The position numbers and the translations under genes are program-made. Shown one piece after another: positions 46,929-64,000 of a DNA stretch of 64,000 nucleotides. The notes under the pieces were generated by a model that saw only the letters and a program-made list of their open reading frames with translations, made no database searches and was not told where the DNA came from. Source of the DNA: a virus. Taxonomy: Duplodnaviria; Caudoviricetes. Location: positions 64,001 to 128,000 of the IMG/VR virus record IMGVR_UViG_3300033066_001283. One strand, written 5' to 3'. Positions within the stretch are counted from its first letter, which is position 1; each line of letters starts with the position of its first letter.

Positions 46929-48205
46929 GCATTGCCAGTATTAATATTGTCTTTTATTGTAAGTACTTTCTTAACAAAATCTGCCTTAGGTGGTGAAGGT
47001 TTCGCTAGTTTTTGATTTAAGAATATCTTTAATCCATTTGAAAGTAACTGGAGTGTTTCTTCTTTAAGCTGATTTTCTAATGTTCCACCACTAGACTGAA
47101 GCAAATAATCTATCATATAGATGTATTGCTTAGTCATTGCATTCTTTTTAGTGTTCAATAGTTGAAGTTGTCTATCTTCACCAATCTTCTTAAAGTATCC
47201 TTCTTTGTATACTAAATCTGCTTCACTAGTTTGAAGTGCACTAACTATTGATCTTAATAACTGACTAGAGAATTCTGTGTAATCTTTATTGATATCTACG
47301 TCTCCAGATGAGTTTAGAATACTCTCAAACAGTTCTAGATCTCTCATTGTCTTTGATGAGAAACCACCAACTATTGCATTATTATATGTAGAGAATAGTT
47401 TAGAATATGCTTTAGATAGGTAATTATTAAATACGTTAGATAGAGATACCTTCAATGTTTTAAAGTTATCAGTATTTAAAAGAAGTGAAGATTGAAGCAA
47501 GGTTCTCATTTGTAAAAGAGCTTTATTAACTTGTACTCCACTATCATAGTTATAACTTAGTGATCTATACAAATCACCTGTAAATCGATTAACAAAACTA
47601 TCACTAACCTTCTGTAGTACGTTCTTCTGAATGGAAGATATTTGGGAGTCTAGTATTCCGATATACTGTCTCTCCTTGAATAGTGAATATCTTACTACAG
47701 GATTTGAGGTTTCAAAATCTGAATAAAGATTATTGTCAGCAAGTACTTCTCTCCAAATCGTGTCCAAGTTAAGCTTGGTTAATCCTAATTCTGACTTCAA
47801 ATCATAGAGATCAGAAACTAATGGGGCCCTAGGATCTGGAATTCTAGCATACACTTCTGATTCAATAGCTAATATCAATTTGGGGCTATAAACTACAACA
47901 GGTGTATAATTAGGATCAGCCAGTTTAAATGCGTCAAAGTAGTTAGCTTTAACCATTTCTAGATATGCTGTGAATACTTGATCATCAGATACATGGGAGA
48001 TTTCTTCAATAGCTTTATCAGCATTCTGCATTGCATTATCAGCTAGTGCAGAGATATCTTCTAGAAGAACTGGTAAAGGGGTATCTTGTGAGGTGTCTAA
48101 AGCAGAATAATCTATAGGGGGTATAGATTCAGGTGAAAGATTGCCTTCTTCAGGGTCAACTACTTTCTCAATTTTACGCTGTTCAAAATATTTCCCTAAA
48201 CTCAT
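46925..48205 (-). CDS. Hypothetical helical protein (426 aa)
   Basis: Long ORF between terminase and portal. Confidence 0.5.
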   Translation of the reverse strand: MSLGKYFEQRKIEKVVDPEEGNLSPESIPPIDYSALDTSQDTPLPVLLEDISALADNAMQNADKAIEEISHVSDDQVFTAYLEMVKANYFDAFKLADPNYTPVVVYSPKLILAIESEVYARIPDPRAPLVSDLYDLKSELGLTKLNLDTIWREVLADNNLYSDFETSNPVVRYSLFKERQYIGILDSQISSIQKNVLQKVSDSFVNRFTGDLYRSLSYNYDSGVQVNKALLQMRTLLQSSLLLNTDNFKTLKVSLSNVFNNYLSKAYSKLFSTYNNAIVGGFSSKTMRDLELFESILNSSGDVDINKDYTEFSSQLLRSIVSALQTSEADLVYKEGYFKKIGEDRQLQLLNTKKNAMTKQYIYMIDYLLQSSGGTLENQLKEETLQLLSNGLKIFLNQKLAKPSPPKADFVKKVLTIKDNINTGNA

Positions 48206-50537
48206 CTCTACCTCCTAGTTCTGTTCTATATACACCAGCCCCTGGTATTTCAGTTCTAAAAGTTTCTACTTGATTCCAGAAACCTTCAATTTGTGGTTCA
48301 TTTACCACATTGATCTCATCGGCACTTATTCTATGTAGAAAATTATTCCTAGCTACAAATCTCTTATCTAGTTCATTCTCAAATAAGTACCAAATTCCGT
48401 ACATAGAGAATAGAGCACAGTCAACAATATGTTCACGGTTGGAAGAGAATCTAGTATATTTCTCAGTTCTATGTACAACTCTATAAGTTAATAATTGCTC
48501 TTTCAATTCTTGATCAGAATTGGGGAATAGAACCTTTCCTTCTTGGAACTTCTTCTGAAGCTGGCCAACCAAGAATTCCTTCAGCATCTTCTTCTCTTCC
48601 ATTCCAGTCATAGGATTAAGAACAAGTTCAACTTCATTGAATTGCTTCTTCATAAACATATGAGCAGGGAATCCTCTCTTCTCTCCTTCTATGAATAAAT
48701 ATTCCCACTGGAATTGACCCATTCCGCCATCTGAGATACAAATATCTATCTGGTATTCATATGCTAAATCTAAGGCTAACTGACAAGCATTATGGAATGT
48801 AAAATCTCCTCTTGGTACTTCTTCTCTATATATGAGAACCATTTCACCTGTATTTTGATTATACTGAAAGATGACAATGTTAGTTCCAGCTTGAGCTTTA
48901 TCCCAATCTATACCCATGATCCTAATTAGATCAGTATTAACTAAGTGTGAACCATACTCCCAATCATCTTCAGAAGCTCGTTCAACATCAGCAGCTCTAA
49001 ATACAGCAGTCTCTTCATCACCAAACTTAAGTAAATATTCAGTCTGGAATTGGTAGGCTGGTGTAACTGCTCTAATCTGCTCAATTTCTTCTTCACTGTA
49101 ATCAGGATTAGTATCAATAGGTGCAAATACTTTAGTTTCTGCTACAGGATCAAGTGTGTTTTTAAATATCTTCTCATAGTAGAGACCAGCAGGAATTCGT
49201 ACAGTTCCAACAATATAATTTCTAATTCTTGGAGCACGATATTTATCACCATTCATCATAGGTGAAATAACAGACCATCCATCCTCATTAATCTCTTGAG
49301 CTTCTTCAACAAAGATATAATCAGGTGAAAGACCTCTAATCTTAGGTCCTACAATATAACCTTTAATTTTACTTCCATTAGTGAAAGTTCTAGTAGGTGG
49401 AGTTTTAGTATTACCTACTGCTGATCTGATTGATTGGAGAATAGGATTAGCTCCAATCCAGTTATCTAAAACATCAAACCACTCTGTAAGCTGTGCCTCA
49501 GAGGCACCAAATACTGCAATATCCCTGTTAGGTTCAGTAAGAACATGCCATAAAGCTAATACAGTTAACGCATAACTATTGTGTAAGACTGTGTTTGTAC
49601 CAAGGAAATTATGGTCTTCATGCTCTACTGATAAATCATAAACATCCTGTAGACCAGTATGCCACATCTCAGTTATCAGTTCCCATCTCCTAGGTCCTCT
49701 AACATCTAAGATTTGTGTTTCAATTCCAACTAAATTAAGGAATTGGTTCTGATCAATTACATTGTCTATGAATAAATTGCCATCTTCATCTACTCTTGAT
49801 TCTACACCGAATCTTAGAATTAGATGCTGTAAATCAAATGCTAGTAGTCTGTTCCAGAGTAGAAATCCAACTTCTTTATCTTCTCTAAAGATTCTACCAT
49901 CTTCTACCCATAATTCTCGTATGAAAGATCTTAAGCATTCTCTAGTTAAGCTAAATACCACATCAGGAATGAATTTCCAGTCCATTACTATTGAAACTAA
50001 ATCTCTTGTTTCATCTAGTGTTTTAACATTCTCACCAAAGACTGGAATAGTAGTTGGAGCAAGAATATAATCTCCAACTCTAAGTTCTTCTGCTTTAATC
50101 CACCCTTTCTTAGCTTCAAATACATTATGATCAGTAGAAAGTGAAATATTATTTCCAGTTCCTAATTTAAGCTTTAAACATTTCTTCTTACCTGAATCAA
50201 ACCACTCACAATCAGCCCAAATTAGTTCATTCTTATCGAAATCAAAACATAATGTCTTATTAAAGCTAGATGCTGATGCAATGGGGACTGGTCTTAGGGT
50301 GGTTGGGTGTATAACTAAAGTATCGCCTGCTACACATTTTCCAACACGTCGTGAAGCACAAATATAGGTAAATTTCTTCTTTGTGCTCATAATTTTCTTC
50401 TGAACCCAGTTAGCTTCAAATGGAGCTTTTGTTTGTGGCTCAACCAAGAATGTTTCTGCCCAGGTTACAGGGTTTTGAATGATCTTAGCCAGTTTTCTTC
50501 TTTGCTCTGGCGTAAGTTCACTAAGATCTTCTATCAT
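48183..50537 (-). CDS. terL: Terminase large subunit with an intein (531 aa mature)
   Basis: Walker A ASRRVGK|S split by the intein; Walker B IFVEEAQ; FQTEYL; nuclease motifs GIDWDK and HIVDC. Confidence 0.92.
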   Translation of the reverse strand: MIEDLSELTPEQRRKLAKIIQNPVTWAETFLVEPQTKAPFEANWVQKKIMSTKKKFTYICASRRVGKCVAGDTLVIHPTTLRPVPIASASSFNKTLCFDFDKNELIWADCEWFDSGKKKCLKLKLGTGNNISLSTDHNVFEAKKGWIKAEELRVGDYILAPTTIPVFGENVKTLDETRDLVSIVMDWKFIPDVVFSLTRECLRSFIRELWVEDGRIFREDKEVGFLLWNRLLAFDLQHLILRFGVESRVDEDGNLFIDNVIDQNQFLNLVGIETQILDVRGPRRWELITEMWHTGLQDVYDLSVEHEDHNFLGTNTVLHNSYALTVLALWHVLTEPNRDIAVFGASEAQLTEWFDVLDNWIGANPILQSIRSAVGNTKTPPTRTFTNGSKIKGYIVGPKIRGLSPDYIFVEEAQEINEDGWSVISPMMNGDKYRAPRIRNYIVGTVRIPAGLYYEKIFKNTLDPVAETKVFAPIDTNPDYSEEEIEQIRAVTPAYQFQTEYLLKFGDEETAVFRAADVERASEDDWEYGSHLVNTDLIRIMGIDWDKAQAGTNIVIFQYNQNTGEMVLIYREEVPRGDFTFHNACQLALDLAYEYQIDICISDGGMGQFQWEYLFIEGEKRGFPAHMFMKKQFNEVELVLNPMTGMEEKKMLKEFLVGQLQKKFQEGKVLFPNSDQELKEQLLTYRVVHRTEKYTRFSSNREHIVDCALFSMYGIWYLFENELDKRFVARNNFLHRISADEINVVNEPQIEGFWNQVETFRTEIPGAGVYRTELGGRDEFREIF
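49578..50336 (-). mobile_element. Intein in the TerL Walker A motif (253 aa, truncated homing endonuclease)
   Basis: RVGK|CVAGDTLV...STDHNVF...LWVEDG...VYDLSV...VLHN|SYA. Only one LAGLIDADG block is visible. Confidence 0.92.
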
Positions 50538-52873: not shown

Positions 52874-53561
52874 CGGATTCTTCCTCCTCTTCGAAATCTG
52901 CCTCTAAAATCTCGGGTTTTCGGGTGAAAATGTCCTTCAAGAAGCTATTTCCCTTACCAATTACTGAAGCAAGCTGTGCTCTGTCCTTTCTAGACGCCAT
53001 TAATTGGGTCTGAAGTGCTGAAATCTGCTTCTCAAGCTTCTCATTCTCTTTGTAGAGTGGATGAACAGCCTCTTTCCAGTAAACTTGACCAGTTCTCTGG
53101 TTCACAGCCCCTGGTTCCTTAGTCATCATGCCATCTAAGGCTATTTGCCAGTCAATTCTACGCTTAAAAATGTATAATCTGACCAAACTTGTGACGTTAA
53201 GTATGTCTGTAGCTTGATTTGGGTTAATATCAAGCTCCTTAACTAGGCTGGAGAACTGTTTTAGAGCCTCAACTCGGTCAATTCTACAGTCACTACCTAC
53301 TAAACCTAGGATTTCATTGTCATTTAGCTTACTAATCAGTGGGCATTTATCAGCATAAGGGCAATCTTTACCCTTACAGACCATTGGAACGTCCTCTAAG
53401 ATGGGAATTACCTCTCTTAGCTTGGTTGTTTGCTTAAAAACTGGCTCCCATTTAGTGTCAAAAAGCAAGAATTCTGCAAATTCGATAAGCATTTGGTCAA
53501 ATTGCTCATCATTTATGGGTGTTTTAGGGTCAAATTTAACTATCGCTTCGTGCTTTTCCAT
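52857..53561 (-). CDS. Putative terminase small subunit
   Basis: CKGKDCPYADKC cluster; HPL...LEKQ...LMASRKDR resembles TerS C-terminal helices; lies upstream of terL. Confidence 0.4.
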   Translation of the reverse strand: MEKHEAIVKFDPKTPINDEQFDQMLIEFAEFLLFDTKWEPVFKQTTKLREVIPILEDVPMVCKGKDCPYADKCPLISKLNDNEILGLVGSDCRIDRVEALKQFSSLVKELDINPNQATDILNVTSLVRLYIFKRRIDWQIALDGMMTKEPGAVNQRTGQVYWKEAVHPLYKENEKLEKQISALQTQLMASRKDRAQLASVIGKGNSFLKDIFTRKPEILEADFEEEEESDEYNG

Positions 53562-53958
53562 ATTTATAATTAAAAACTTTTAAACTGAGCTGTGGCTGGA
53601 ACAAACTTAGTATTCTTACTGGTGAATCGAGGTTTTCAAGCTCATACACCTTAAAAAATGTCCCTTTTATCGGCCCATAGCAGTTTTTCCACTCTGTATT
53701 TACTACTCTATGGAAAGCACAATCTCTTAAATAGTCAATTTCATAGAGTTTCGATCCTACTGGGGTAAATTCCTTCATGTGCTTACCCGATAAGATCTCT
53801 CTAAAATCGTCATCATCGAACCCCATGATTCGTACGCTCATATCAATTAGCGTATGTTGAGCAACTGGGTGCTCATAGGGGTATATTAAGTTGAATTTAG
53901 GAAATCTTTTTAATGCATCAAAAGATTCCGCTGGTAGGGGCACATCTATAGACTTCAT
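53536..53958 (-). CDS. Hypothetical protein
   Basis: 140 aa, SD GAGGTG. Confidence 0.5.
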   Translation of the reverse strand: MKSIDVPLPAESFDALKRFPKFNLIYPYEHPVAQHTLIDMSVRIMGFDDDDFREILSGKHMKEFTPVGSKLYEIDYLRDCAFHRVVNTEWKNCYGPIKGTFFKVYELENLDSPVRILSLFQPQLSLKVFNYKYGKARSDS

Positions 53959-54003
53959 AAGTACACCTCTATTGTAGGAAAGTCCTACCTAACAAGTAGA
54001 GGT

Positions 54004-57000
54004 CTATTTAGAGACAATAGCCTTAAATACTTCTCCTAACTTAGCAAAAGCCTCTTTTAGAATTGGTGAAAGGTGTGATGCTGACTCTACCCCACCAATC
54101 AATCTTCCTTCTACTGCTGCCATTCTTTCAGCGTAACCAGCTTGGTATCTTTCTAATCCAGCTGCAACTATTTTTCTACCATCAATCTCTTCACCACTAT
54201 CTAGAAAGAGTTTTGCAGGATCCATTCCTGCAGCTACTGCTTCTAATAGTGTTTGACCCACATGTTCTACCAGATTATTGACCATTCCTTCATCTAATCC
54301 TTGTTCTACCCACATTCTAGCCATCGGCCTTAACTGATCAATGATGGCTGTGCCTTGGTATCTTCTAATAACTGATTCTGTCTCTTCAGTAATAGCAGTT
54401 TCAGTAGAAGTTAATGATCTTCCTGCCTGAACATCCATCCAGAGTCTACTTTTATGCTTATAATTAATTCCATCTTTACTAAACTCAAAAAGCTTTTCTT
54501 CACGGTGTGCAACCAACCGATTATAGTTCTCAGCAGAAGAATCTTTCATGTAAGCATTGAAAGCCTGTTTGGCTGATTCTGAAGTGCTTGCAATATCTGC
54601 TAAAACATCCATCAAGCCCTTATCTTTAGCTCCACCAATTCCTTGAAAGATAAGATTTTCACTTGATTCAAATGAGAAAGGTAATCCTTGATCTTTAATT
54701 GCACCATTAGTACTTAACCATTTACCTAATTCTTTAGTGAAAGAGTAATGTTCTCCCTCATACTCTATTCCAGTTTCCGCTTTAGTGGGCATTTGAAGCG
54801 TTCTTCTATGCTTAGCCTCCCAAGATGAGGATACACCAGAAGAGACGCCTAGAAAGCCCTCTGAGGCGTCAAAAACCCTATTTACAGAAGACTCACCATA
54901 GTGTTTATAGATTGAACTGGCCAACTCTGGCTGAAAATCCTCCATATCTGTTAAAACTAATCTCGCTTTGACGAGTGGGCTATTAGTAAGCTGCTTCATA
55001 GTCTTCATAGTAGCACTCTGATTATTGATTGTTAAGTAGTCACCAATAAATGGTTTCTCACCATGAAGGGTGCCTAATAATCCAATTCCAAACCTAAGTC
55101 CTTCCTTATCTAAATTTCGCATCATTAAGGTTCCAACTAGAACTTTATCTAAATCCTTATCACTATTAAGCTCATTAACTGCCCCAAGTGCCAAACTAAT
55201 GTTCTCATCCCCATAAACTCCATAATTTTGCTGAAGATCTAATAATCGGTAATGCCTAAAACGCATAACATTAGTCTCAGGTGTAATAGCTAATCCACCA
55301 TCAATTTGGGCTACAACATCACTAATTCCTATTGCACCTATTGTTCGTTTTACTTCACCCATAGCCTCTCTATATACATAAGCTCTATCAGCATAGTCAG
55401 CCATACCCATAATGTATGCAATGTATTCCCGATCATTAGGATTCGCCTTTAATGTATTTCTTAGTGTGGCTGGATCAGTCCCCATAGCTGTAGCTGCTTT
55501 AATTAAAATATTATTGTGCTCGAAAATGTAACTAGCAGTAATATTTTCACTTTCACCAAACAATCTATTTGACTCAAGACCGATGCCTTTCTTAGTGAAT
55601 AATGAACCAATGATTTCTGGTAGGTACTGTTCCGGTTGATCTTCTACAACTTCCCCAAACTCATTTAACCTTCTTCTAATTGGTAGGTAGATGCCGTGTT
55701 GTATATTTTTAAATTTTGCATTAGTTGCTTTTCCAGTAGGATCTCTGAAAGTAACTAATTTACCTTCTACCCCGTCAATAGTGTGGAGCTCAAGGAAACT
55801 GAAACGCTCATTTATGTTCTTTCTAGTTTTAGTAAACTGTTTGTAGAATTCAAGTGCTCGTGCAGATGCTTCATGAACTGGGGTTCTAACATCTTTAGTA
55901 TCCCCATAACTTCTTTTGAAAAACATCTCTTCTGGGCGGAAAGCTCCAATCAACTTTCTAGCAAGTTGTTCCCTTGGAAGAATAGCTTCGTTAGCAATAA
56001 CAGCTGCCTGTACCTCTAATGGCATTTGCTCAAAATACTTTCGTTGGCTGGTGCTTTTACCAAATACCTCATCTAATGCATAATCATGAGCAACCATAGC
56101 TTGTAGCTGATGGTACATGGGTGATGAAGCTGTTCCTTTCTGGTTAAGACCAAGATTTTCAATAGCCATCGCCACAAGCCCTTTATCACGAAGTGGATCA
56201 AATAAAGCAAATGCCCCAGTTAAAGCATTATCATCCTCCATCAATTGTGCATACTTATCTGGGTTATCTCTTGCTAACCTGGCTAGAAAATCTTTGAAAG
56301 CAATTAAGTTGGTAACATTTACCTGGTTAGTTCCGAGGCCTACTACTGTATCTCTAGCTCCAATCTCCCACATCTTTGTGAAAGCCTTAACCTGGTTCTC
56401 TTTAGTACTGGTAAAATAATATTCCAGATCTTTTGAAATACCTTTAAACACTGGGTGGTTAGGTCCAACCTCTTTTATTCCCCGAAGAATCTTGTGTGGA
56501 TCTTGCTTATCATAGTGTATAACGTAGGTTAAGTTTGGTGAGTGTGCTGGGAACTTGGTAACAAATCCTCCAAGGCTAATATTACCATTACCCACCCTCT
56601 GCTTCATCTCTTCAGTTTTTCGCTGAAGCCATGCGTTAAAATTAGCTTCAAATGTTGTAACAGATACTTGGTCACCATCAAAGTCACGGTAGAGTAGGTA
56701 AGAAGCTTTTGGGTTCATCATAACAACCTCTTGCCCTGTATTCTCATTCACCTGAATCCTAATATGTATCTCAGTTCCAGGTGGAATAGGAAGCTTCTCA
56801 GTATCGGCCCAGCTTCTTCCCCTCAGTTTTGGGTCCATAGGGAGCGTAGGATCCCAAAATAGCTTCATCATTCTAGTGTGAACATTATCAGCACCAAACG
56901 CTTTACTTAAAAAGTGTTTAACTGCAGCAGGACCTTCTATTCTACTTTGATCATTTCCTAGCTTTGTTAAATTCCTTCCAGCTATATTCCTTAACTGGGC

Positions 57001-57213
57001 TAGAATCGCAGTGTTATCATCAGCAGAATTAATTCCCGCCTTCAACTGTCTCCAAGCGAAGTCAAAGCCAGCTGCAAAAATCTCCCGTTGATTCTGAACA
57101 AAGGGTATTGCTTCAAATTCGCCCCTTATCTCATCAGCAGAAAATAATCTCCCTGAAGAATCTTTAAACCATGTATTAGGTTTAAATGTATACCTTCTAG
57201 CAATCCAGCTCAT
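54004..57213 (-). CDS. Putative phage double-psi beta-barrel RNA polymerase (beta'-like catalytic motif)
   Basis: VVMMNPKASYLLYRDFDGDQVSV (DFDGD at aa 177-181, nt 56671-56685) parallels the beta' pattern xxLNPxxxxxYNADFDGDxMxV. Possible beta-like LHGEK at aa 716-720. Confidence 0.65.
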   Translation of the reverse strand: MSWIARRYTFKPNTWFKDSSGRLFSADEIRGEFEAIPFVQNQREIFAAGFDFAWRQLKAGINSADDNTAILAQLRNIAGRNLTKLGNDQSRIEGPAAVKHFLSKAFGADNVHTRMMKLFWDPTLPMDPKLRGRSWADTEKLPIPPGTEIHIRIQVNENTGQEVVMMNPKASYLLYRDFDGDQVSVTTFEANFNAWLQRKTEEMKQRVGNGNISLGGFVTKFPAHSPNLTYVIHYDKQDPHKILRGIKEVGPNHPVFKGISKDLEYYFTSTKENQVKAFTKMWEIGARDTVVGLGTNQVNVTNLIAFKDFLARLARDNPDKYAQLMEDDNALTGAFALFDPLRDKGLVAMAIENLGLNQKGTASSPMYHQLQAMVAHDYALDEVFGKSTSQRKYFEQMPLEVQAAVIANEAILPREQLARKLIGAFRPEEMFFKRSYGDTKDVRTPVHEASARALEFYKQFTKTRKNINERFSFLELHTIDGVEGKLVTFRDPTGKATNAKFKNIQHGIYLPIRRRLNEFGEVVEDQPEQYLPEIIGSLFTKKGIGLESNRLFGESENITASYIFEHNNILIKAATAMGTDPATLRNTLKANPNDREYIAYIMGMADYADRAYVYREAMGEVKRTIGAIGISDVVAQIDGGLAITPETNVMRFRHYRLLDLQQNYGVYGDENISLALGAVNELNSDKDLDKVLVGTLMMRNLDKEGLRFGIGLLGTLHGEKPFIGDYLTINNQSATMKTMKQLTNSPLVKARLVLTDMEDFQPELASSIYKHYGESSVNRVFDASEGFLGVSSGVSSSWEAKHRRTLQMPTKAETGIEYEGEHYSFTKELGKWLSTNGAIKDQGLPFSFESSENLIFQGIGGAKDKGLMDVLADIASTSESAKQAFNAYMKDSSAENYNRLVAHREEKLFEFSKDGINYKHKSRLWMDVQAGRSLTSTETAITEETESVIRRYQGTAIIDQLRPMARMWVEQGLDEGMVNNLVEHVGQTLLEAVAAGMDPAKLFLDSGEEIDGRKIVAAGLERYQAGYAERMAAVEGRLIGGVESASHLSPILKEAFAKLGEVFKAIVSK

Positions 57214-57218
57214 TAGTT

Positions 57219-57249
57219 AAAATAGAGGCAAAACTAATTCAAGTGTCAA
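57219..57249 (-). promoter_or_regulatory. Possible sigma70-type promoter for the RNAP-like gene (leaderless)
   Basis: TTGACA-19 nt-TATTTT-5 nt-ATG, with no SD. Confidence 0.45.
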
Positions 57250-57330
57250 AAATTAGAACACCCTTCCACCCCAATTAATTTCTCTGTTTCAGAAATAGGT
57301 ACTGTCAAAATAATAATTTCCTAAAACTCA

Positions 57331-58448
57331 GAATTAGACCCACCCCCCATTGAATTAATCCTTCTTAATACTCCAACCATAGTAAGTTGGAAACTTACCC
57401 TTCTTCAATTGATACAAGCCATTTCTTGGAATATTAAATTGTTTAGCTAACTGAGAGATATTATTAGTTACATGCTCATTACCGTTGGGATCAATGAATG
57501 TGGGGTGTATTGTCTCTCCATTCTTTATTCTTACAGAGTTTTCAGCATTTATTTTCGCTATTCTTTCACTCTTTTCAGATGAGTAAATCTTTTCTTTTGC
57601 TGCTTTACGAGGTTTAGGTTGCCATATCTTTTCTCTTTCACCTGGAGGTAAAGAATATCCCTTGTAGGTTTTGCGCGTCCCATTAATAACTCTTCTTAGT
57701 CTTTTTTGCTCTAAATTATTCTCTTCACAAAATAAACTTAAATTTCTAACTGTAAAAGTGGTATTCTGAAAACAAAGTTGATACTCTTTTGAGATTGGTT
57801 TATTTTCCCTGTATTCTCTGGAAATATTTTCTTTTTTATATTTCTCTCGACTCTTAATAACCTTATCAGAAATAGTATACCGTCTGCCGTAATCTTTACT
57901 TCTCTCTAAAGATTCTAATCTTTTAGCATTTCGATATTCAATCCTTTCAGAGTCACTCATACTAGATAGCTTCTTGCGTTTTTCTTGCCCTTCCTTAACC
58001 TTAGTACTAAATTCAGTTTCAGAAATTCTAATTTTATAATTAGGTAGTAGTCCTGGCTTTAGTAGTATATTATACATTTTGTCTTTAGTACATAGACTTA
58101 AGTAATATTCTTCTTTTTCGTTCAGCTGCTCAATCGAGCACTCCTCAATAATTCCCGGTTTAAAGTATTCTTTATCTTTATTCCATGCGTTCTGAAGATA
58201 TGCATTAGAGTGTACCCCTTTCAATAAATCACATCTGTGATCTGTAAATCGTCTAGGTATATGTTTAGATTGTCCTATATACATTTTATCATTTAATGTG
58301 TTGTATAGACAATAGATGCCAGAAACATTTGGAACTTCCTTCCATTCGTATAATGAGATATTCATATAAAAGAATGTAGATCATCCCCTAAAAATCAAGG
58401 CATGTCTGAGTTGGTAATAGACGGGGGCATAGTCGGAATTAGACCCAC
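57331..58448 (+). repeat. 13-bp direct repeat GAATTAGACCCAC flanking the GIY-YIG gene
   Basis: Exact copies at 57331-57343 and 58436-58448. Confidence 0.75.
57355..58365 (-). CDS. Free-standing GIY-YIG homing endonuclease
   Basis: SGIYCLYNTLNDKMYIGQS...RF..H...H.N..LQNAW..., LNEKE, YNI; two NUMOD1-like C-terminal HTH units. Confidence 0.88.
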   Translation of the reverse strand: MNISLYEWKEVPNVSGIYCLYNTLNDKMYIGQSKHIPRRFTDHRCDLLKGVHSNAYLQNAWNKDKEYFKPGIIEECSIEQLNEKEEYYLSLCTKDKMYNILLKPGLLPNYKIRISETEFSTKVKEGQEKRKKLSSMSDSERIEYRNAKRLESLERSKDYGRRYTISDKVIKSREKYKKENISREYRENKPISKEYQLCFQNTTFTVRNLSLFCEENNLEQKRLRRVINGTRKTYKGYSLPPGEREKIWQPKPRKAAKEKIYSSEKSERIAKINAENSVRIKNGETIHPTFIDPNGNEHVTNNISQLAKQFNIPRNGLYQLKKGKFPTYYGWSIKKD

Positions 58449-58538
58449 GAGGGTCGTTTTTATGGGCAATCATGCCTATAGGGAATCATCCCAGTGATGC
58501 TGTGCTCAACAGCTTTTACCTTTGTAGGAGGTAATATC

Positions 58539-58877
58539 GTGTTTAAAATGACAGTAGCCACTATGGCAGCGATCATTCTGCGTAGTAAGGACATGGCAAG
58601 TCCTTCCATCGCTCTCCGTTCAGGCGAGCTTGTCCTCATTGATGGAGATATCAATGACGAGAACCTTCTCATCGTGGATGCGGTGGACACCTCGTTCTGG
58701 GAACAGTGGTTGCCCAGTAATATCCCGTTCCGACATACCTTTGGAACGTTCGAGTCTCAAATGAAGCGGTACGTGAGCCGCTTCAATCGAACTGGTGTAA
58801 AGAATGTCCTCATGGCATTGTCGTATCATGAGGTGCAGTTGAAGAGGAGGTATCCAGAAGAACTGTTTAAAGACTGA
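58539..58877 (+). CDS. Early-region hypothetical protein
   Basis: Start reassigned to GTG 58539 behind AGGAGGT. Confidence 0.65.
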   Translation: MFKMTVATMAAIILRSKDMASPSIALRSGELVLIDGDINDENLLIVDAVDTSFWEQWLPSNIPFRHTFGTFESQMKRYVSRFNRTGVKNVLMALSYHEVQLKRRYPEELFKD

Positions 58878-58944
58878 GCCGAAAGCCAGGGATTTCTCCC
58901 TGGTTATACATAGGGTATGCTCCTATGTACTGATGAGGCAGCAC
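58878..58944 (+). ncRNA. Hammerhead ribozyme, type II (copy 1)
   Basis: GCC-GAAA-stem III GCCAGGGA/TTTC/TCCCTGGT-T-A^-stem I TACATAGG/GTATGCT/CCTATGTA-CTGATGA-GGC. Loop I TGCT can pair with the 3' AGCA. Predicted cleavage after A58906. Confidence 0.9.
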
Positions 58945-58981
58945 TCTCACAACGACCTTTACCTTTGTAGGAGGTAATATT

Positions 58982-59296
58982 ATGCTATTGACATTCACCA
59001 TTCCATCTACTGGGCACATACGCTCAGTGGATCTGAGGGACGAGCTTGTGCATGAGTACAAGCTTTCAATCCAAGAGATGAGCAGGTACTTTAGCCCTGC
59101 TCTTGACAGACAGCGGAGGGCAGCACACAATAAGGTGGCTGCTTCTCTTGTCCCCATTCTCAAGGAAGAACTTCCTGAGGAGGATGATGCTTCTCTCACT
59201 CAAGAGGCCCGTAGGATAGTGACGGGTTTTTTAGAAGAATCCCTGACTGGCCGGAGTATGGTCAGGGAGCTCCTGGACTCCGGTTTACTGCGTTAG
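58982..59296 (+). CDS. Early-region hypothetical protein
   Basis: 104 aa, SD AGGAGGT. Confidence 0.7.
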   Translation: MLLTFTIPSTGHIRSVDLRDELVHEYKLSIQEMSRYFSPALDRQRRAAHNKVAASLVPILKEELPEEDDASLTQEARRIVTGFLEESLTGRSMVRELLDSGLLR

Positions 59297-59308
59297 TTTG
59301 AGTATTGC

Positions 59309-59357
59309 GGTGAACAGTGCCTAACTGTATGGTGTGTAAATCACCTATCTGTAGGAG
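59309..59357 (+). ncRNA. Unclassified two-hairpin intergenic motif (copy A)
   Basis: GGTGA-ACAG/TGCCTAA/CTGT-AT-GGTG/TGTAAAT/CACC-TATC-TGTAGGAG. Confidence 0.55.
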
Positions 59358-59368
59358 GTAAGTAAATC

Positions 59369-59635
59369 ATGCGTTCAATGAACAAAGGAAGTTGGGTGTA
59401 TTTACCAACTCTTATCACTCTTTCGATGCTCCAGGAGCAGAAGGACAGACACTACACCTTCCACCCAGAGGTCTTCTTCGAGGACCTCAATCCTGGGTGG
59501 ACTGAGCAGGTTCTCGGGTTCATGGCGAAGAACCCAACGTGCTCGATGAGCATCGATGCACGGTATCATCAGGACAGCTACTCTGATGGGGAAACCCTTA
59601 GAGGAGAAGGCATGGTGTATTGTCAGACTAGATAA
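59369..59635 (+). CDS. Early-region hypothetical protein
   Basis: 88 aa, SD AGGAGGT. Confidence 0.7.
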   Translation: MRSMNKGSWVYLPTLITLSMLQEQKDRHYTFHPEVFFEDLNPGWTEQVLGFMAKNPTCSMSIDARYHQDSYSDGETLRGEGMVYCQTR

Positions 59636-59636
59636 T

Positions 59637-59703
59637 GCCGAAAGCCAGGGATTTCTCCCTGGTTATACATAGGGTATGCTCCTATGTACTGATGAGGCAG
59701 CAC
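59637..59703 (+). ncRNA. Hammerhead ribozyme, type II (copy 2)
   Basis: Part of a 77-bp exact repeat of copy 1 (58878-58954 = 59637-59713). Stem II can extend to TGCC/GGCA. Predicted cleavage after A59665. Confidence 0.9.
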
Positions 59704-59737
59704 TCTCACAACGTTTGTTACCGTAGGAGGTAATATA

Positions 59738-59899
59738 GTGAATAGAAGAACAAAACTCATCATCGTTAGTGCTATCATAGTAGCACTATGCCTGCTGGAT
59801 GCAGCAGGTGTCTGCATCACTGACCCTCGCTTTGAGGCGGGGAAGCAGGATAGGGCTCAAGCAGCCCGCATTCTTGAGGAAGCAAGCACAACACATTGA
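59738..59899 (+). CDS. Small membrane protein (53 aa)
   Basis: Not in the track; GTG behind AGGAGGT; MNRRTKLIIVSAIIVALCLLDAAGVCITDPRFEAGKQDRAQAARILEEASTTH*. Confidence 0.65.
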   Translation: MNRRTKLIIVSAIIVALCLLDAAGVCITDPRFEAGKQDRAQAARILEEASTTH

Positions 59900-59907
59900 T
59901 TGCTTGT

Positions 59908-59956
59908 GGTGAACAGTGCCTAACTGCATGGTGTGTAAATCACCTAATTGTAGGAG
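59908..59956 (+). ncRNA. Unclassified two-hairpin intergenic motif (copy B)
   Basis: Near-identical to copy A; CAG/TGCCTAA/CTG, GGTG/CACC, TGTAGGAG. Confidence 0.55.
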
Positions 59957-59963
59957 TAATAAA

Positions 59964-60407
59964 ATGAAAACATTAGTAGTAGCAGTGTGGGCGTGGCTTT
60001 CGGCCAAGTACCAAGGTCTTGTCTATGGCAGGACTGAGAAGTGTGAGTGGTGCGGGGAGCCGTGCGTTCCCAACGCTCACCATATGTGTGTGCACTGCCT
60101 TGAACAGGAGTTTGGCACTCCTGAAGACTGGCAGGCAGAGTGGGAAGAGGACTCGCTTCGACAGAAGATCGAGGACGTTCTGGATCCTGAAGAGTTGGAG
60201 CATTCTAATACTCAGGATCAAGGAGAGGGATGGGGAGTCCACACCTGCTGCAAGTGTGGTGGAAAGACTCATCCTGATGGTCCTGCATCTGTGTGGGATC
60301 CTTTCACCGATGAGACTTGGTGTGAGGATTGCTGGTATAAGGAGAATCCTCCCAGCGAACAGCTCATAAAGAGTCTGCCGAAGTGTGAGGTAGACTTCGA
60401 AGACTAA
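59964..60407 (+). CDS. Acidic protein with two C4 zinc-finger-like units
   Basis: Start reassigned to ATG 59964 behind AGGAG; CEWC...CVHC and CCKC...CEDC. Confidence 0.7.
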   Translation: MKTLVVAVWAWLSAKYQGLVYGRTEKCEWCGEPCVPNAHHMCVHCLEQEFGTPEDWQAEWEEDSLRQKIEDVLDPEELEHSNTQDQGEGWGVHTCCKCGGKTHPDGPASVWDPFTDETWCEDCWYKENPPSEQLIKSLPKCEVDFED

Positions 60408-60416
60408 TGAGTATAT

Positions 60417-60463
60417 GGTGGACGTGCCTAACGTAGCAGAAGGATTATCTGCATTTGTAGGAG
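60417..60463 (+). ncRNA. Unclassified two-hairpin intergenic motif (copy C, divergent)
   Basis: GGTGG-ACG/TGCCTAA/CGT-A-GCAGA/AGGATTA/TCTGC-ATT-TGTAGGAG; both stems differ from A/B yet still pair. Confidence 0.55.
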
Positions 60464-60473
60464 TAGTAAGAAC

Positions 60474-61832
60474 ATGAAACTGTTAAGTTTAGAACAAGTG
60501 TGGAAGATGCGGACGAAGCATCAGTTGGAGTGGTTGAACTCAATCCCTGACCTGAAGACGAAGAAGTGTCAGCGTGTTGTTGTAAGAGGAAACAAGACGA
60601 TTTCAATCGTCGTGACCATGGGATTCCGAGATTCGGAATCAAAGGTCCGTCTATTCAAGATCGAACACAGATTTAAGATTGATGGTACCTACCTTGGCTC
60701 GTACTTTGAAGGAATAGATCCTTCTGCCTTCACGCGTCAGGTTCTGAGGCTGGTGAGATTATCACTCCCAGGGTTGCACTCAAAAGTGCAACATGGGTAT
60801 GTTATGGATAAACTCTGCCACCCATTCGATCTAGCGGATTTTTCCAAGGAAATTGGTATCAGCGCCTGCCCGTGGGGTGTTAAGACCGTTCTGCTGTGGC
60901 AGGATCTTGGATTCTATACTAGGTATAGTGTCAATGATCTCTACCTTCCAGTTAAACATGGATTGTTACGCAATCTAAAACGAGAAGATCATGGAGGATT
61001 AGAGTACATGATGCGAAAGGGAGGCAAGTATATTCGCTCCCTAGGAAAACAAGGAAGTATTATGGTATGGAGAGCTGTAACAGCAATGGATGCTGCTAGA
61101 ATCTCTCCCGGCCTCCCCTTCCGAGTGGCCACAATGTGGTTAACTGTAGTAAGCCATAGACGGAACGAAGAATCTCTCCCAATATGGGCAAGGTTTATCT
61201 TCCTTCACTGGGAGCAGAACTACAGAGCCATTCTTCGTAGAACGAAGAATGCAGCTGGAGTGCATCGCTCACGAGATATAGATGCAGTGCTCAATGATCT
61301 GTATGATTACTTGGGTGCACATTACGAAGAAGCTCTACCAGATGCTGCATTCGAGGTCTTGTTCCAAAGATCAGAAGCGTGGCATCGCGTGTTAAGAGAG
61401 AATCGGCGTGCTCTTAATGATATAGACTATGGTCCAAATCTTGAGAAGGACACTGCTCTTCCTTGGAATGGATTGGAAGGAACATTCTCTATTGGCGAAT
61501 TCGAGTTTACTCGAATTACAACGTATGGAGATCTCTTGGATGAGGGCGACATTATGCGGCATTGTGTAGCTACATATGTCAGGTATTGTCTAACAGGCAA
61601 TACATCCATTTGGAGTATGAGACTCAAGGTACTAAAGGGCAAGAAATGTATGCGTGTTGCCACACTTGAAGTAGCGCATGCAGGAGTGTCTGAGTTGCGA
61701 CAGGCTCGAACTGCCTGTAATGGCTCACTAAACGACGAACAAAGAGCCGCAACCAGAGCCTTTGTATCCTGGCTTAACAATCAACCACTTAGTGTGGGTG
61801 AGAGACTTAGAGCATTGAATGAGGTAAACTAA
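60474..61832 (+). CDS. PcfJ-like domain protein
   Basis: C-terminal ITTYGDLLDEGDIMRHCVATY...GNTSIWSMR...VATLEV...QAR..CN matches the PcfJ-like pattern. Confidence 0.75.
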   Translation: MKLLSLEQVWKMRTKHQLEWLNSIPDLKTKKCQRVVVRGNKTISIVVTMGFRDSESKVRLFKIEHRFKIDGTYLGSYFEGIDPSAFTRQVLRLVRLSLPGLHSKVQHGYVMDKLCHPFDLADFSKEIGISACPWGVKTVLLWQDLGFYTRYSVNDLYLPVKHGLLRNLKREDHGGLEYMMRKGGKYIRSLGKQGSIMVWRAVTAMDAARISPGLPFRVATMWLTVVSHRRNEESLPIWARFIFLHWEQNYRAILRRTKNAAGVHRSRDIDAVLNDLYDYLGAHYEEALPDAAFEVLFQRSEAWHRVLRENRRALNDIDYGPNLEKDTALPWNGLEGTFSIGEFEFTRITTYGDLLDEGDIMRHCVATYVRYCLTGNTSIWSMRLKVLKGKKCMRVATLEVAHAGVSELRQARTACNGSLNDEQRAATRAFVSWLNNQPLSVGERLRALNEVN

Positions 61833-62161
61833 TGAACAAGAATAAGAAGCTCCAGATGGAGCGGATCATCGCTGAGGTACGAGCAAACAAAGTGCTCGTT
61901 ATTGATGTCAAGGACTTTGAAGCCTATCGAGGTGTTGTCCGCCTTGGTACCCTCAAGGCGAGGGAAGCAAAGAGGGAGTGGAAAGCTCCCAAGTTGATTG
62001 TCAAAGCTCAGACAGCTGATCCTGAAGTTCTCAGGAAGTTGGCTGACAGAGGAGCTAGCAGAATTATCTGCTCAGTTCCCAAGAACAAGAAACGAGAGAT
62101 CATCCAGTCTCTCGTCAAGAACCCTGCACGATGTTGGGTGCAGGTAATGGAGGTAAAATAA
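61832..62161 (+). CDS. Basic hypothetical protein
   Basis: 109 aa, TAATG coupling, SD GAGGT. Confidence 0.65.
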   Translation: MNKNKKLQMERIIAEVRANKVLVIDVKDFEAYRGVVRLGTLKAREAKREWKAPKLIVKAQTADPEVLRKLADRGASRIICSVPKNKKREIIQSLVKNPARCWVQVMEVK

Positions 62162-62427
62162 TGCCACTACTCATTCAAGTGTTCAGGAAGGGGCAGAATG
62201 AGCCCCTTGCCTTGCAGGATGTTGATATGGAGGTGAGAAATCACTTCCAATATCACAAGGACCAAGAGACAAAGTTTATTTGTAGTTGGCCCTCAACTCT
62301 CACATATAGGCTTGCATTCAAGCCTATGGATGAGGTACTATCTGATCTAAGAGCAGACGGATTAGTCACAGTCGCTGAGGTATGTGAGTATATCAGCGAT
62401 AATTATGACATCAGAGTATGGAGGTAA
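62161..62427 (+). CDS. Hypothetical protein
   Basis: Start reassigned to ATG 62161 behind GGAGGT. Confidence 0.65.
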   Translation: MPLLIQVFRKGQNEPLALQDVDMEVRNHFQYHKDQETKFICSWPSTLTYRLAFKPMDEVLSDLRADGLVTVAEVCEYISDNYDIRVWR

Positions 62428-62430
62428 ATC

Positions 62431-62748
62431 ATGTGGAAATTGATCAGGATTGAGCTAGGTAGTCGAAAGACTGTCCTGCTCAAGAAGCAGTTCGCTACTG
62501 AGAGAGATGCTCAGAAGCATGCCAATCGACTCAATGGTATGTATGCCCATCGCTATGGTGATGGGTTCTACCATGTACAACTCCTATCCCCTTCTCAGTG
62601 GAGAGAGCCACAAGTGGTGAAGACCAAGTGGTTCATCGGAGATAAGACAGGGCAGATAATCGCCTCATTTGATCAGGAAGAGAAAGCTACCCAGTTCTTA
62701 GATGATAACTGGGAACAGGACTGGACCAAATGGCAGGGCCCAGCCTAG
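62431..62748 (+). CDS. Hypothetical protein
   Basis: 105 aa, SD GGAGGT. Confidence 0.65.
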   Translation: MWKLIRIELGSRKTVLLKKQFATERDAQKHANRLNGMYAHRYGDGFYHVQLLSPSQWREPQVVKTKWFIGDKTGQIIASFDQEEKATQFLDDNWEQDWTKWQGPA

Positions 62749-62849
62749 CATCACTGTTCTATTCCCCTACTGGATTAGCCTCCGGTAGGGGAACGCCTGC
62801 CGTGGATTGCCGCCTAGGTGGTGATACCAAGTTGTAGGAGATTACAAAT

Positions 62850-63089
62850 ATGAAACAGCCTATCGTAATTACAGCAGAGCGCAAAGCCGAACTGAAGAGG
62901 ATTGTCAAGCGGGCAATCGAGACCGGAGCTACGAGCTTCACCGTGAACAGCCCAGCAGAATGGACGTTCTGCGTGCGTGCTATCCAACACGAGCGGTCTA
63001 AGGGGCAGTACATCCCCAATAAGCAGATCCTTACCCGGACACAGCTCCGGGATGACGCGCTCGAAGACTTCGATTACAATCCAAGCTAG
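62850..63089 (+). CDS. Hypothetical protein
   Basis: 79 aa, SD AGGAG. Confidence 0.65.
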   Translation: MKQPIVITAERKAELKRIVKRAIETGATSFTVNSPAEWTFCVRAIQHERSKGQYIPNKQILTRTQLRDDALEDFDYNPS

Positions 63090-63098
63090 TGCGTGTTC

Positions 63099-63131
63099 GG
63101 GGCCAACCTAACGGTTGGCCCCCCTTTTCTT
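63099..63131 (+). terminator. Intrinsic terminator
   Basis: 10-bp stem GGGGCCAACC-TAAC-GGTTGGCCCC followed by CCTTTTCTT. Confidence 0.8.
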
Positions 63132-63261
63132 GTGGCCTAACAAACCTCCGGTAGACTGCCTGTTTGGTAGTTTTGGGGCTAATTACGCTCTTGTGTGGTG
63201 TTGCCACATTGGGCACGGCCTGAGGTTTGGGGTGTTAGTGCCCCCATTGTAGGAAGGTAAT

Positions 63262-63609
63262 ATGCTGAAAATTATCAAGAATCGACGTGTGCGTACAGCA
63301 CCAGTGACCAAGCCCGTAAAGCTTACCACTACAGACGAGTTTGATGCTCTAATGAGCAGACTTGAGGAGCTTTCTAAGCAACTTGTTATGCCTGCTTCCC
63401 CGAAGAACCTCACTCCTGAAGATATCAGGGAAGGGACTAAGAAGATGATGATCGGAACTCTGTTCATTACAGAGATGGAAGGCAATACGCAGGAAGAGCA
63501 GATTGCCATGTTCATCAGAATTCGCTCTCAGCTAGTTCCGTATGAGCTTGACTGGTTCAGGCTCGGAGCTGAGGCGATCATGGAATACAGACGGCTATGT
63601 TCGGCCTAG
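63262..63609 (+). CDS. Hypothetical protein
   Basis: 115 aa, SD AGGAAGGT. Confidence 0.65.
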   Translation: MLKIIKNRRVRTAPVTKPVKLTTTDEFDALMSRLEELSKQLVMPASPKNLTPEDIREGTKKMMIGTLFITEMEGNTQEEQIAMFIRIRSQLVPYELDWFRLGAEAIMEYRRLCSA

Positions 63610-63794
63610 GACGACCTGTAGACAGACGTGGAGAGTATTCACGTCCACTGACAATCAAAGAATGTGAAGAACTGATGGCATTCTTTGAGTTGGCTCTACA
63701 GCAAACTGGCATGCCACAGTTCTGGTATGCCCTTGCCAAGAAGAAGAGGGATGAGGTTATAGAGGCCTACTCCCACTTAATGGAGGCACAATGA
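63597..63794 (+). CDS. Hypothetical protein
   Basis: 65 aa, overlapping both neighbours in operon fashion. Confidence 0.55.
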   Translation: MFGLGRPVDRRGEYSRPLTIKECEELMAFFELALQQTGMPQFWYALAKKKRDEVIEAYSHLMEAQ

Positions 63795-64000
63795 GTAGTG
63801 CAAGTCTACGAAAGACCATTAAAGAGCAGGGAACTATCTCTGTCTCTGAACTAGCGAAGGCTCAGCTTGAGAAGTTCAACGCTGAGCGAATCGGCTACAT
63901 AAGGGCCGCTAAAGAGGTCCTTAAGAAAGACAGGTATTCTGAGATTTCTCAGAATGTTGAAGTAACAGTCGATGGCGAAGGACTGTTGCTAACTTTGAAG
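63791..64000 (+). CDS. Hypothetical protein (partial, runs off the window)
   Basis: ATGA overlap, SD GGAGG; MSSASLRKTIKEQGTISVSELAK... is open to the end. Confidence 0.6.
   Translation, partial: MSSASLRKTIKEQGTISVSELAKAQLEKFNAERIGYIRAAKEVLKKDRYSEISQNVEVTVDGEGLLLTLK

Follow-up and report, generated by a model that had tools for sequence, protein, structure and literature searches.

The question raised by this locus is whether a large gene at the head of the late block of an uncultured phage (Caudoviricetes) encodes an RNA polymerase (RNAP) of the two-barrel type used by cells, and whether it might do so with the catalytic barrel placed first. The gene, P0001, lies in IMG/VR virus record IMGVR_UViG_3300033066_001283, a contig of 150,263 bases with 38% G+C judged to be 80% complete, of which positions 64,001 to 128,000 were analysed as a single stretch of 64,000 nucleotides (hereafter the window). 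According to the list of open reading frames (ORFs) and their translations, P0001 spans window positions 54004..57213 and encodes 1,069 amino acids (aa); a preliminary description of this DNA had given these coordinates correctly, although the gene in fact runs on the minus strand. Its DFDGD motif is the sole DxDGD in any long ORF of the window, and one further DxDGD protein, P0005, occurs in the 150-kb genome. The reading that we favour, to which we would assign a probability of about one half, is that P0001 is a very divergent two-barrel polymerase of the cellular type in which the beta'-like catalytic barrel comes first. Single-chain two-barrel polymerases are studied as models of the common ancestor of cellular RNAPs. 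If the reading were true, a catalytic-barrel-first family lacking a supposedly invariant arginine would imply that the two halves of the enzyme can be re-joined in either order, and would offer a minimal and easily expressed test case for the roles of the conserved residues.

The evidence begins with the loop itself. The DFDGD motif (aa 177-181; 56671..56685, minus strand) forms a putative Mg-binding aspartate triad, which would hold the catalytic Mg2+, and the stretch to which it belongs (aa 163-185) ends in NP-x8-DFDGD-QVSV, with the same distance from NP to the first aspartate as that of the HP/NP in beta'-type loops. As in barrel A of bacterial beta', a proline stands nine residues before the first aspartate and hydrophobic residues occupy positions +2 and +4 after the triad, and the string DFDGDQ is identical to that of E. 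coli beta'; in contrast to the bacterial subunit, P0001 has neither the arginine of RxPTLH nor the asparagine of NADFDGD, and carries ~22 extra residues between both motifs. Three homologues of P0001 were found, of 1,060-1,069 aa and in the same gene order, one of them 91% identical and two ~50% identical, and the aspartates, expected in the preliminary description to be conserved, are kept in all three, the whole motif being invariant in the four sequences. Within this four-sequence family the most conserved window of 25 residues is aa 159-183 (88% invariant), and aa 132-156 reaches 84%, compared with 45% for the family overall. Both windows fall in a barrel-A-like region (aa 107-243; 56485..56895, minus strand) made up of strand-like blocks, a short helix, the DFDGD, an inserted helix and a KFP..P block, which matches viral barrel-A segments. 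A hidden Markov model (HMM) of 73 such segments, taken from IMG/VR loci that encode NP-x8-DFDGD, run with all filters off against the 386 ORFs of the genome, placed P0001 at the top (E 3e-4, 14.9 bits, aa 153-189), with the runner-up at E 0.2, and hhalign of the P0001 family against the same segments gave E 6e-4 (aa 152-185). Judged from these comparisons, the loop of P0001 is real, constrained and RNAP-like, and the proposal of an N-terminal, beta'-like catalytic loop is borne out as a statistical similarity to viral RNAP barrel-A segments. When aa 100-215 were represented by ESM features, the nearest named clusters were eukaryotic RNA-dependent RNA polymerase (RdRP, PF05183) fragments with a score of 0.83, which we take as a lead only.

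A further line of evidence comes from P0005 (858 aa, plus strand), an unannotated protein encoded in the early region just past the end of the window (genome positions 128769-131345, corresponding to L001:7770-10346). All of its 19 metagenomic homologues (30-67% identity) keep the DADGD (aa 115-119) and, at aa 703-712, a GK-x7-K loop whose lysine spacing we take to be that of E. coli beta K1065/K1073. The AlphaFold2 model of P0005 is confident, with a predicted local distance difference test score (pLDDT) of 81.9 and a predicted template modelling score of 0.82, and the best Foldseek matches of this model in PDB and BFVD were almost all RNAP second-largest subunits, with weak E values starting from 0.007; the RNAP beta/Rpb2-like fold occupies aa 363-803. 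On the strength of this prediction P0005 is very probably a two-barrel polymerase in a single chain and in reversed order, its aspartate barrel leading. Since P0005 combines a DADGD at aa 115 with an RNAP beta-like fold at aa 363-803, a barrel-A-first layout of P0001 appears plausible.

The order of the RI-x-h-NE, DxDGD and K[FY]P blocks is common to both families, as is the place of the DxDGD near the N-terminus, and the P0005 family also lacks the arginine of the RxP motif. They differ in location and spread, P0005 belonging to the early region with its 19 homologues and P0001 to the late block with three. Paralogy of P0001 and P0005 found no support by BLASTP or by default hhalign of the two families, the signal emerging solely in sensitive local mode. 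In that mode, comparison of the whole families gave as top alignment P0001 aa 152-237 against P0005 aa 101-154 (score 33.1, E 0.009), joining the RI-x-h-NE strand, the DxDGD loop and the K[FY]P block, and none of 92 column-shuffled controls reached this score (mean 20.2, sd 3.6, maximum 31.7). The runner-up alignment, which matched aa 514-574 of P0001 to the barrel-B zone in P0005, kept collinearity but lacked significance, and the lysines in it are not conserved. Taken together, these profile comparisons lend modest support to a barrel A shared by P0001 and P0005, and give none for barrel B. In an AlphaFold2 model of P0001 of low confidence, only the order of secondary-structure elements resembles that of P0005 barrel A.

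A second barrel, if P0001 has one, would probably lie within aa 700-760. In the two-barrel superfamily this barrel supplies two basic residues and an aspartate (Rpb2 K979, K987 and D837), and the preliminary description had singled out GLLGTLHGEKPF (aa 711-722; 55048..55083, minus strand) as a beta-like motif. The motif is present in P0001, yet it falls in a window with 20% invariant positions, among the least conserved of the protein, and nine residues are deleted at this place in the homologues P0003 and P0004, so that the proposal could not be sustained; restricted hhalign aligned it to the K-loop of P0005 with a non-significant score of 10.8 (E 0.29), and the lysines of that loop have no conserved counterpart in P0001. 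A conserved basic block at aa 731-756 (54946..55023, minus strand) lies in a window with 80% invariant positions, the best conserved outside the N-terminus, and contains the invariant residues K737, K740, K749 and R751. It sits ~560 aa after the aspartate triad, a spacing similar to that of P0005 (D115 to K704), and might be considered a candidate part of the second barrel, for which profile comparisons gave no support. Altogether, three candidate sites (aa 520-533, 710-722 and 737-751) were compared, none of them significant by profile and the first two not conserved.

The failure to find a conserved lysine pair for the second barrel would also be expected if P0001 were a beta'-like subunit only, or a catalytically incomplete relic, with a beta-like partner residing elsewhere in the phage or in P0005; a beta'-like subunit with a separate partner was also the alternative named in the preliminary description. 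Precedents for divided enzymes exist, both in the multisubunit RNAPs of jumbo phages (PMC7598289) and within this phage group, where an endonuclease-like gene appears to interrupt the two-barrel polymerase of ME3 within barrel A. Nevertheless, RNAP beta models match none of the other ORFs in the genome, nor does any of these show an obvious K-loop, a chain of 1,069 aa can hold both halves, as the 858 aa of P0005 do, and the basic block at aa 731-756 stands where a second barrel would be expected. We regard the subunit or relic explanation as improbable.

If its catalytic barrel indeed comes first, P0001 would depart from the characterised single-chain enzymes that were checked, namely QDE-1, the YonO-like gp99 and gp64 and gp96 of phage P23-45, all of which have the beta-like barrel first. 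In QDE-1, D709, R738 and K743 precede D1007. YonO from the Bacillus prophage SPbeta and gp99 from Bacillus phage 0305phi8-36, which belong to the RdRP/QDE-1 clade, resemble P0001 in being single chains of ~0.8-1.2 thousand residues that, apart from the DxDGD triad, have hardly anything in common with cellular RNAP. In contrast to P0001, with its triad at aa 177 and no RxP arginine, gp99 presents an R-x4-KG motif first (near aa 290) and its DTDGD at aa 573, and keeps the RSP of the RxP motif; the family model PF05183, which covers YonO and the RdRPs, did not match P0001, whose N-terminal triad departs from the beta-like-barrel-first order of that family. The tape-measure-fused gp96 of P23-45 and gp66 of the crAss-like phage phi14:2 are strongly divergent two-barrel polymerases of the late module, which are packaged and carry out transcription of the first genes; P0001 is not fused to a tail protein as gp96 is. 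Thermus phage P23-45 pairs its virion gp96 with an early-made, non-virion gp64 (PMC10770324), and in both of them barrel B precedes barrel A, with a connector between the two according to that paper (DFDGD at aa 779 in gp96, DYDGD at aa 326 in gp64). The P0001 profile matched neither gp64 nor gp96 nor gp99, and the P0005 profile yielded nothing significant either, aligning only marginally with gp96 (1.7 bits) and gp99 (negative scores) at their DxDGD loops or close to them. A limited literature search returned no described permuted two-barrel RNAP, which does not prove that none exists.

A different rearrangement was observed in Acinetobacter phage vB_AbaM_ME3 (L123, record positions 222114-226849). 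There, ME3_309 (798 aa), the best structural match of P0005, ends in VRNPS, ME3_308 resembles a homing endonuclease and the next gene, ME3_307, starts with a DVDGD at aa 34, all three being annotated as hypothetical proteins. The set looks like a two-barrel RNA polymerase of normal order that has been split inside barrel A by the insertion of an endonuclease gene.

The P0001 family is markedly isolated. Homologues were sought in protein sets of 5.8 and 1.8 billion sequences, and beyond the three mentioned none was found in IMG/VR, the JGI metagenomes or prokaryote genomes, leaving the family at four sequences. A tblastn search of P0001 against 50,697 phage records found no match, and a TerL-anchored scan of IMG/VR for more distant counterparts returned nothing. 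When the segment aa 100-200 was used alone, neither PF00623 nor PF00562 was matched and only a chance Ig-like match appeared. Neither 0305phi8-36 nor ME3 has a large gene ahead of its terminase, and their genomes are matched by neither the P0001 nor the P0005 profile.

Several observations weigh against a polymerase function of P0001 and should be considered together. The arginine and proline of RxP (Rpb1 R446/P448) are two of the eight residues called invariant in two-barrel RNAPs (PMC2919709). The preliminary description had read the whole of aa ~118-185 as a beta' pattern, and whereas its NP-x8-DFDGD half holds beyond chance, its FWDPTL half (aa 119-124) does not; the RxP arginine is absent from all four family sequences, and the sole candidate position, W120-D-P122, reads A-D-H in P0003 and P0004. 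Besides, a tyrosine replaces the asparagine of NADFDGD, no conserved pair of basic residues can be assigned to the second barrel, the profile scores rest on ~35-55 columns only, default hhalign between the P0001 and P0005 families finds nothing, and the AlphaFold2 model obtained from the four-sequence alignment is unusable (mean pLDDT 34.7), too poor to display a barrel fold. P0001 has no match in Pfam, PHROGs or NCBIfam, searches of PDB sequences with the protein and with its profile yielded chance matches only, and PF00623, PF00562 and PF05183 remained unmatched in the genome at E values up to 10. As regards expression and packaging, the P0001 gene is devoid of the strong GTAGGAGGTA ribosome-binding site common to early genes, and 0305phi8-36, a relative for which virion proteomics exist, has no counterpart of P0001 at this position.

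Some of these facts could also suggest that P0001 is not a polymerase at all, and that DFDGD serves to bind metal or calcium in a fast-evolving late protein of unrelated fold, for instance an ejected or anti-defence protein, its likeness to beta' being convergent or due to chance. The similarity to barrel A spans only ~35-55 residues, the RxP arginine is missing, and nothing came out of standard family models, PDB searches or structure prediction; the hypervariability of the gene, which resembles that of an exchanged cassette, is typical of conflict proteins. A scan of IMG/VR with the DNA pattern of NP-x8-DFDGD matched at least 105 loci, and at least 78 of these 105 have the upstream beta'-type [RK]xP[STVA][LW] motif, a count that speaks for the polymerase reading; by eye, the loci devoid of [RK]xP were mostly divergent RNAPs, and about one tenth of all the matches, their contexts likewise read by eye, were unrelated and clearly not polymerases. 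In the JGI metagenomes, the catalytic-loop pattern matched only an unrelated calcium-repeat surface protein. On the other side, the loop with its flanks is the most conserved part of P0001, its spacing and flanking hydrophobic pattern fit barrel A rather than repeats of the EF-hand or thrombospondin type (the third aspartate is not followed by a glycine, and repeats are absent), and the best profile match of the entire protein is the DxDGD region of P0005, the RNAP-like protein of the same phage. A non-polymerase P0001 is in our view rather doubtful. The specific reading of DFDGD as an EF-hand was discarded, since the loop has no glycine at position 6 and no glutamate at position 12.

The genomic setting of P0001 bears on what such a polymerase might do. 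Downstream of it on the same strand follow a gene of 140 aa, a small-terminase-like gene with a weak Terminase_4 match (E 2e-4, 22.2 bits, for a Pfam cut-off of 24.7 bits), three unknown genes, an intein-interrupted large terminase, the portal and the rest of a late block of ~85 kb, and upstream there is a gene for a GIY-YIG homing endonuclease and then the divergent early region. P0001 was accordingly well described as heading the terminase, portal and virion block beside the divergent early region, with the nuance that in this genome the endonuclease gene intervenes; the two contigs with the more distant homologues share this gene order, the endonuclease being absent from one of them. The portal is 27-29% identical to those of Bacillus phage 0305phi8-36 (27.5%) and Acinetobacter phage ME3, and by this protein sequence both are distant relatives of the window phage.

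In the favoured reading, the phage would have two polymerases, the barrel-A-first P0005 encoded in its early region and P0001 as the second. By analogy with P23-45, phiKZ, AR9 and N4, P0001 would most likely be synthesised late and enter the virion in few copies; delivered together with the DNA, it would transcribe the first genes, P0005 among them, after which the early-made P0005 would take over transcription. These four two-polymerase phages, which do not represent a survey, each package one of their two enzymes.

The same position would suit a non-virion, late-specific polymerase of the YonO type, expressed ahead of the late genes from its own upstream element and then reading the co-directional late block that lies downstream. 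The gene yonO lies just upstream of the SPbeta late operon, a position like that of P0001, and YonO transcribes the operon as one unit (PMC5467207). All the polymerase-domain evidence given above applies equally to this scheme; P0001 is preceded by a conserved element that is unique in the genome, and ~85 kb of co-oriented late genes follow. Against it, a mere 45 bases with no predicted terminator separate P0001 from the next late gene, a layout that looks like co-transcription with the very genes to be switched on; an early-region polymerase is already available for the middle and late genes, and the two-polymerase phages just mentioned offer precedents for packaging. We consider a YonO-type role distinctly unlikely, and delivery with the virion is preferred in view of the co-transcription layout and of the polymerase that the phage already makes early.

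The divergence of P0001 is strongly localized. When window positions 54004-57213 were compared with L002:1391-4573 and L003:3734-6916, P0001 showed 51-52% protein identity to its counterparts in the L002 and L003 phages, whereas the next two genes reach 98-100%, the portal 97% and the terminase 92%. At the nucleotide level, identity is 95-99% in both flanks and ~66-69%, or nothing, inside the gene, and the 3' boundary of divergence lies ~130 bases before the P0001 stop codon. Such a pattern suggests that the gene has been either exchanged as a cassette or subjected to strong diversifying selection, and would therefore explain why so few homologues of P0001 can be found. Divergence of this sort is usually linked with tail fibres or anti-defence genes. 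A polymerase-like gene ~51% identical amid neighbours at 98-100% would mean that strong diversifying pressure, or cassette exchange, can act on a transcription enzyme. More speculatively, and on balance unlikely to hold in full, the lineage could possess two independent barrel-A-first polymerases, P0001 being the virion-delivered one, encoded in a hypervariable cassette and possibly endowed with unusual substrate or priming chemistry; the latter is conceivable because both ribose-sensing residues, the RxP arginine and the NADFDGD asparagine, are absent.

Upstream of P0001, a conserved element of 63 bases (57276..57338, minus strand) is nearly identical in L003, whose coding sequence is ~69% identical at the nucleotide level, and occurs only once in the genome; a promoter or leader specific to this gene is a possible role. 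Scans for sigma-70 promoters and terminators stayed at background level, and Rfam gave nothing at gathering score in window positions 53500-64000. A CCTCT lies ~13-17 bases upstream of the P0001 ATG, and the lack of the strong ribosome-binding site fits a low-copy protein, though it proves nothing. At the other end of the gene, an inverted repeat (window 53965-54003, minus strand) fills the 45-base gap, its 3' arm covering the AGAGGT ribosome-binding site of the next gene; compared with shuffled sequences, this hairpin shows no gain in folding energy (z -1.15).

Other features of these genomes were recorded in passing. The large terminase gene (window 48183-50537, minus strand) contains an intein with a LAGLIDADG domain; its extein is 93% identical in the L002 phage, where the intein is present too. 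That phage also carries at L002:6856-7734 an extra gene of 292 aa with a weak ART-PolyVal match, inserted between the counterparts of the 386-aa and 231-aa genes of the window and absent from the window phage. Three independent contigs with P0005 homologues (L005, L006 and L007) all end 4.8-7.1 kb upstream of that gene, short of the late block. This is a hint that the genome, like that of 0305phi8-36, has a physical end (terminal repeat) separating early region and late block. Finally, two direct repeats of 94 bases, 93% identical, lie in the early intergenic region (window 58878-58971 and 59637-59730, plus strand; L001:1879-1972 and 2638-2731); they contain CTGATGAG and paired stems, and a further pair of 53-base repeats lies nearby.

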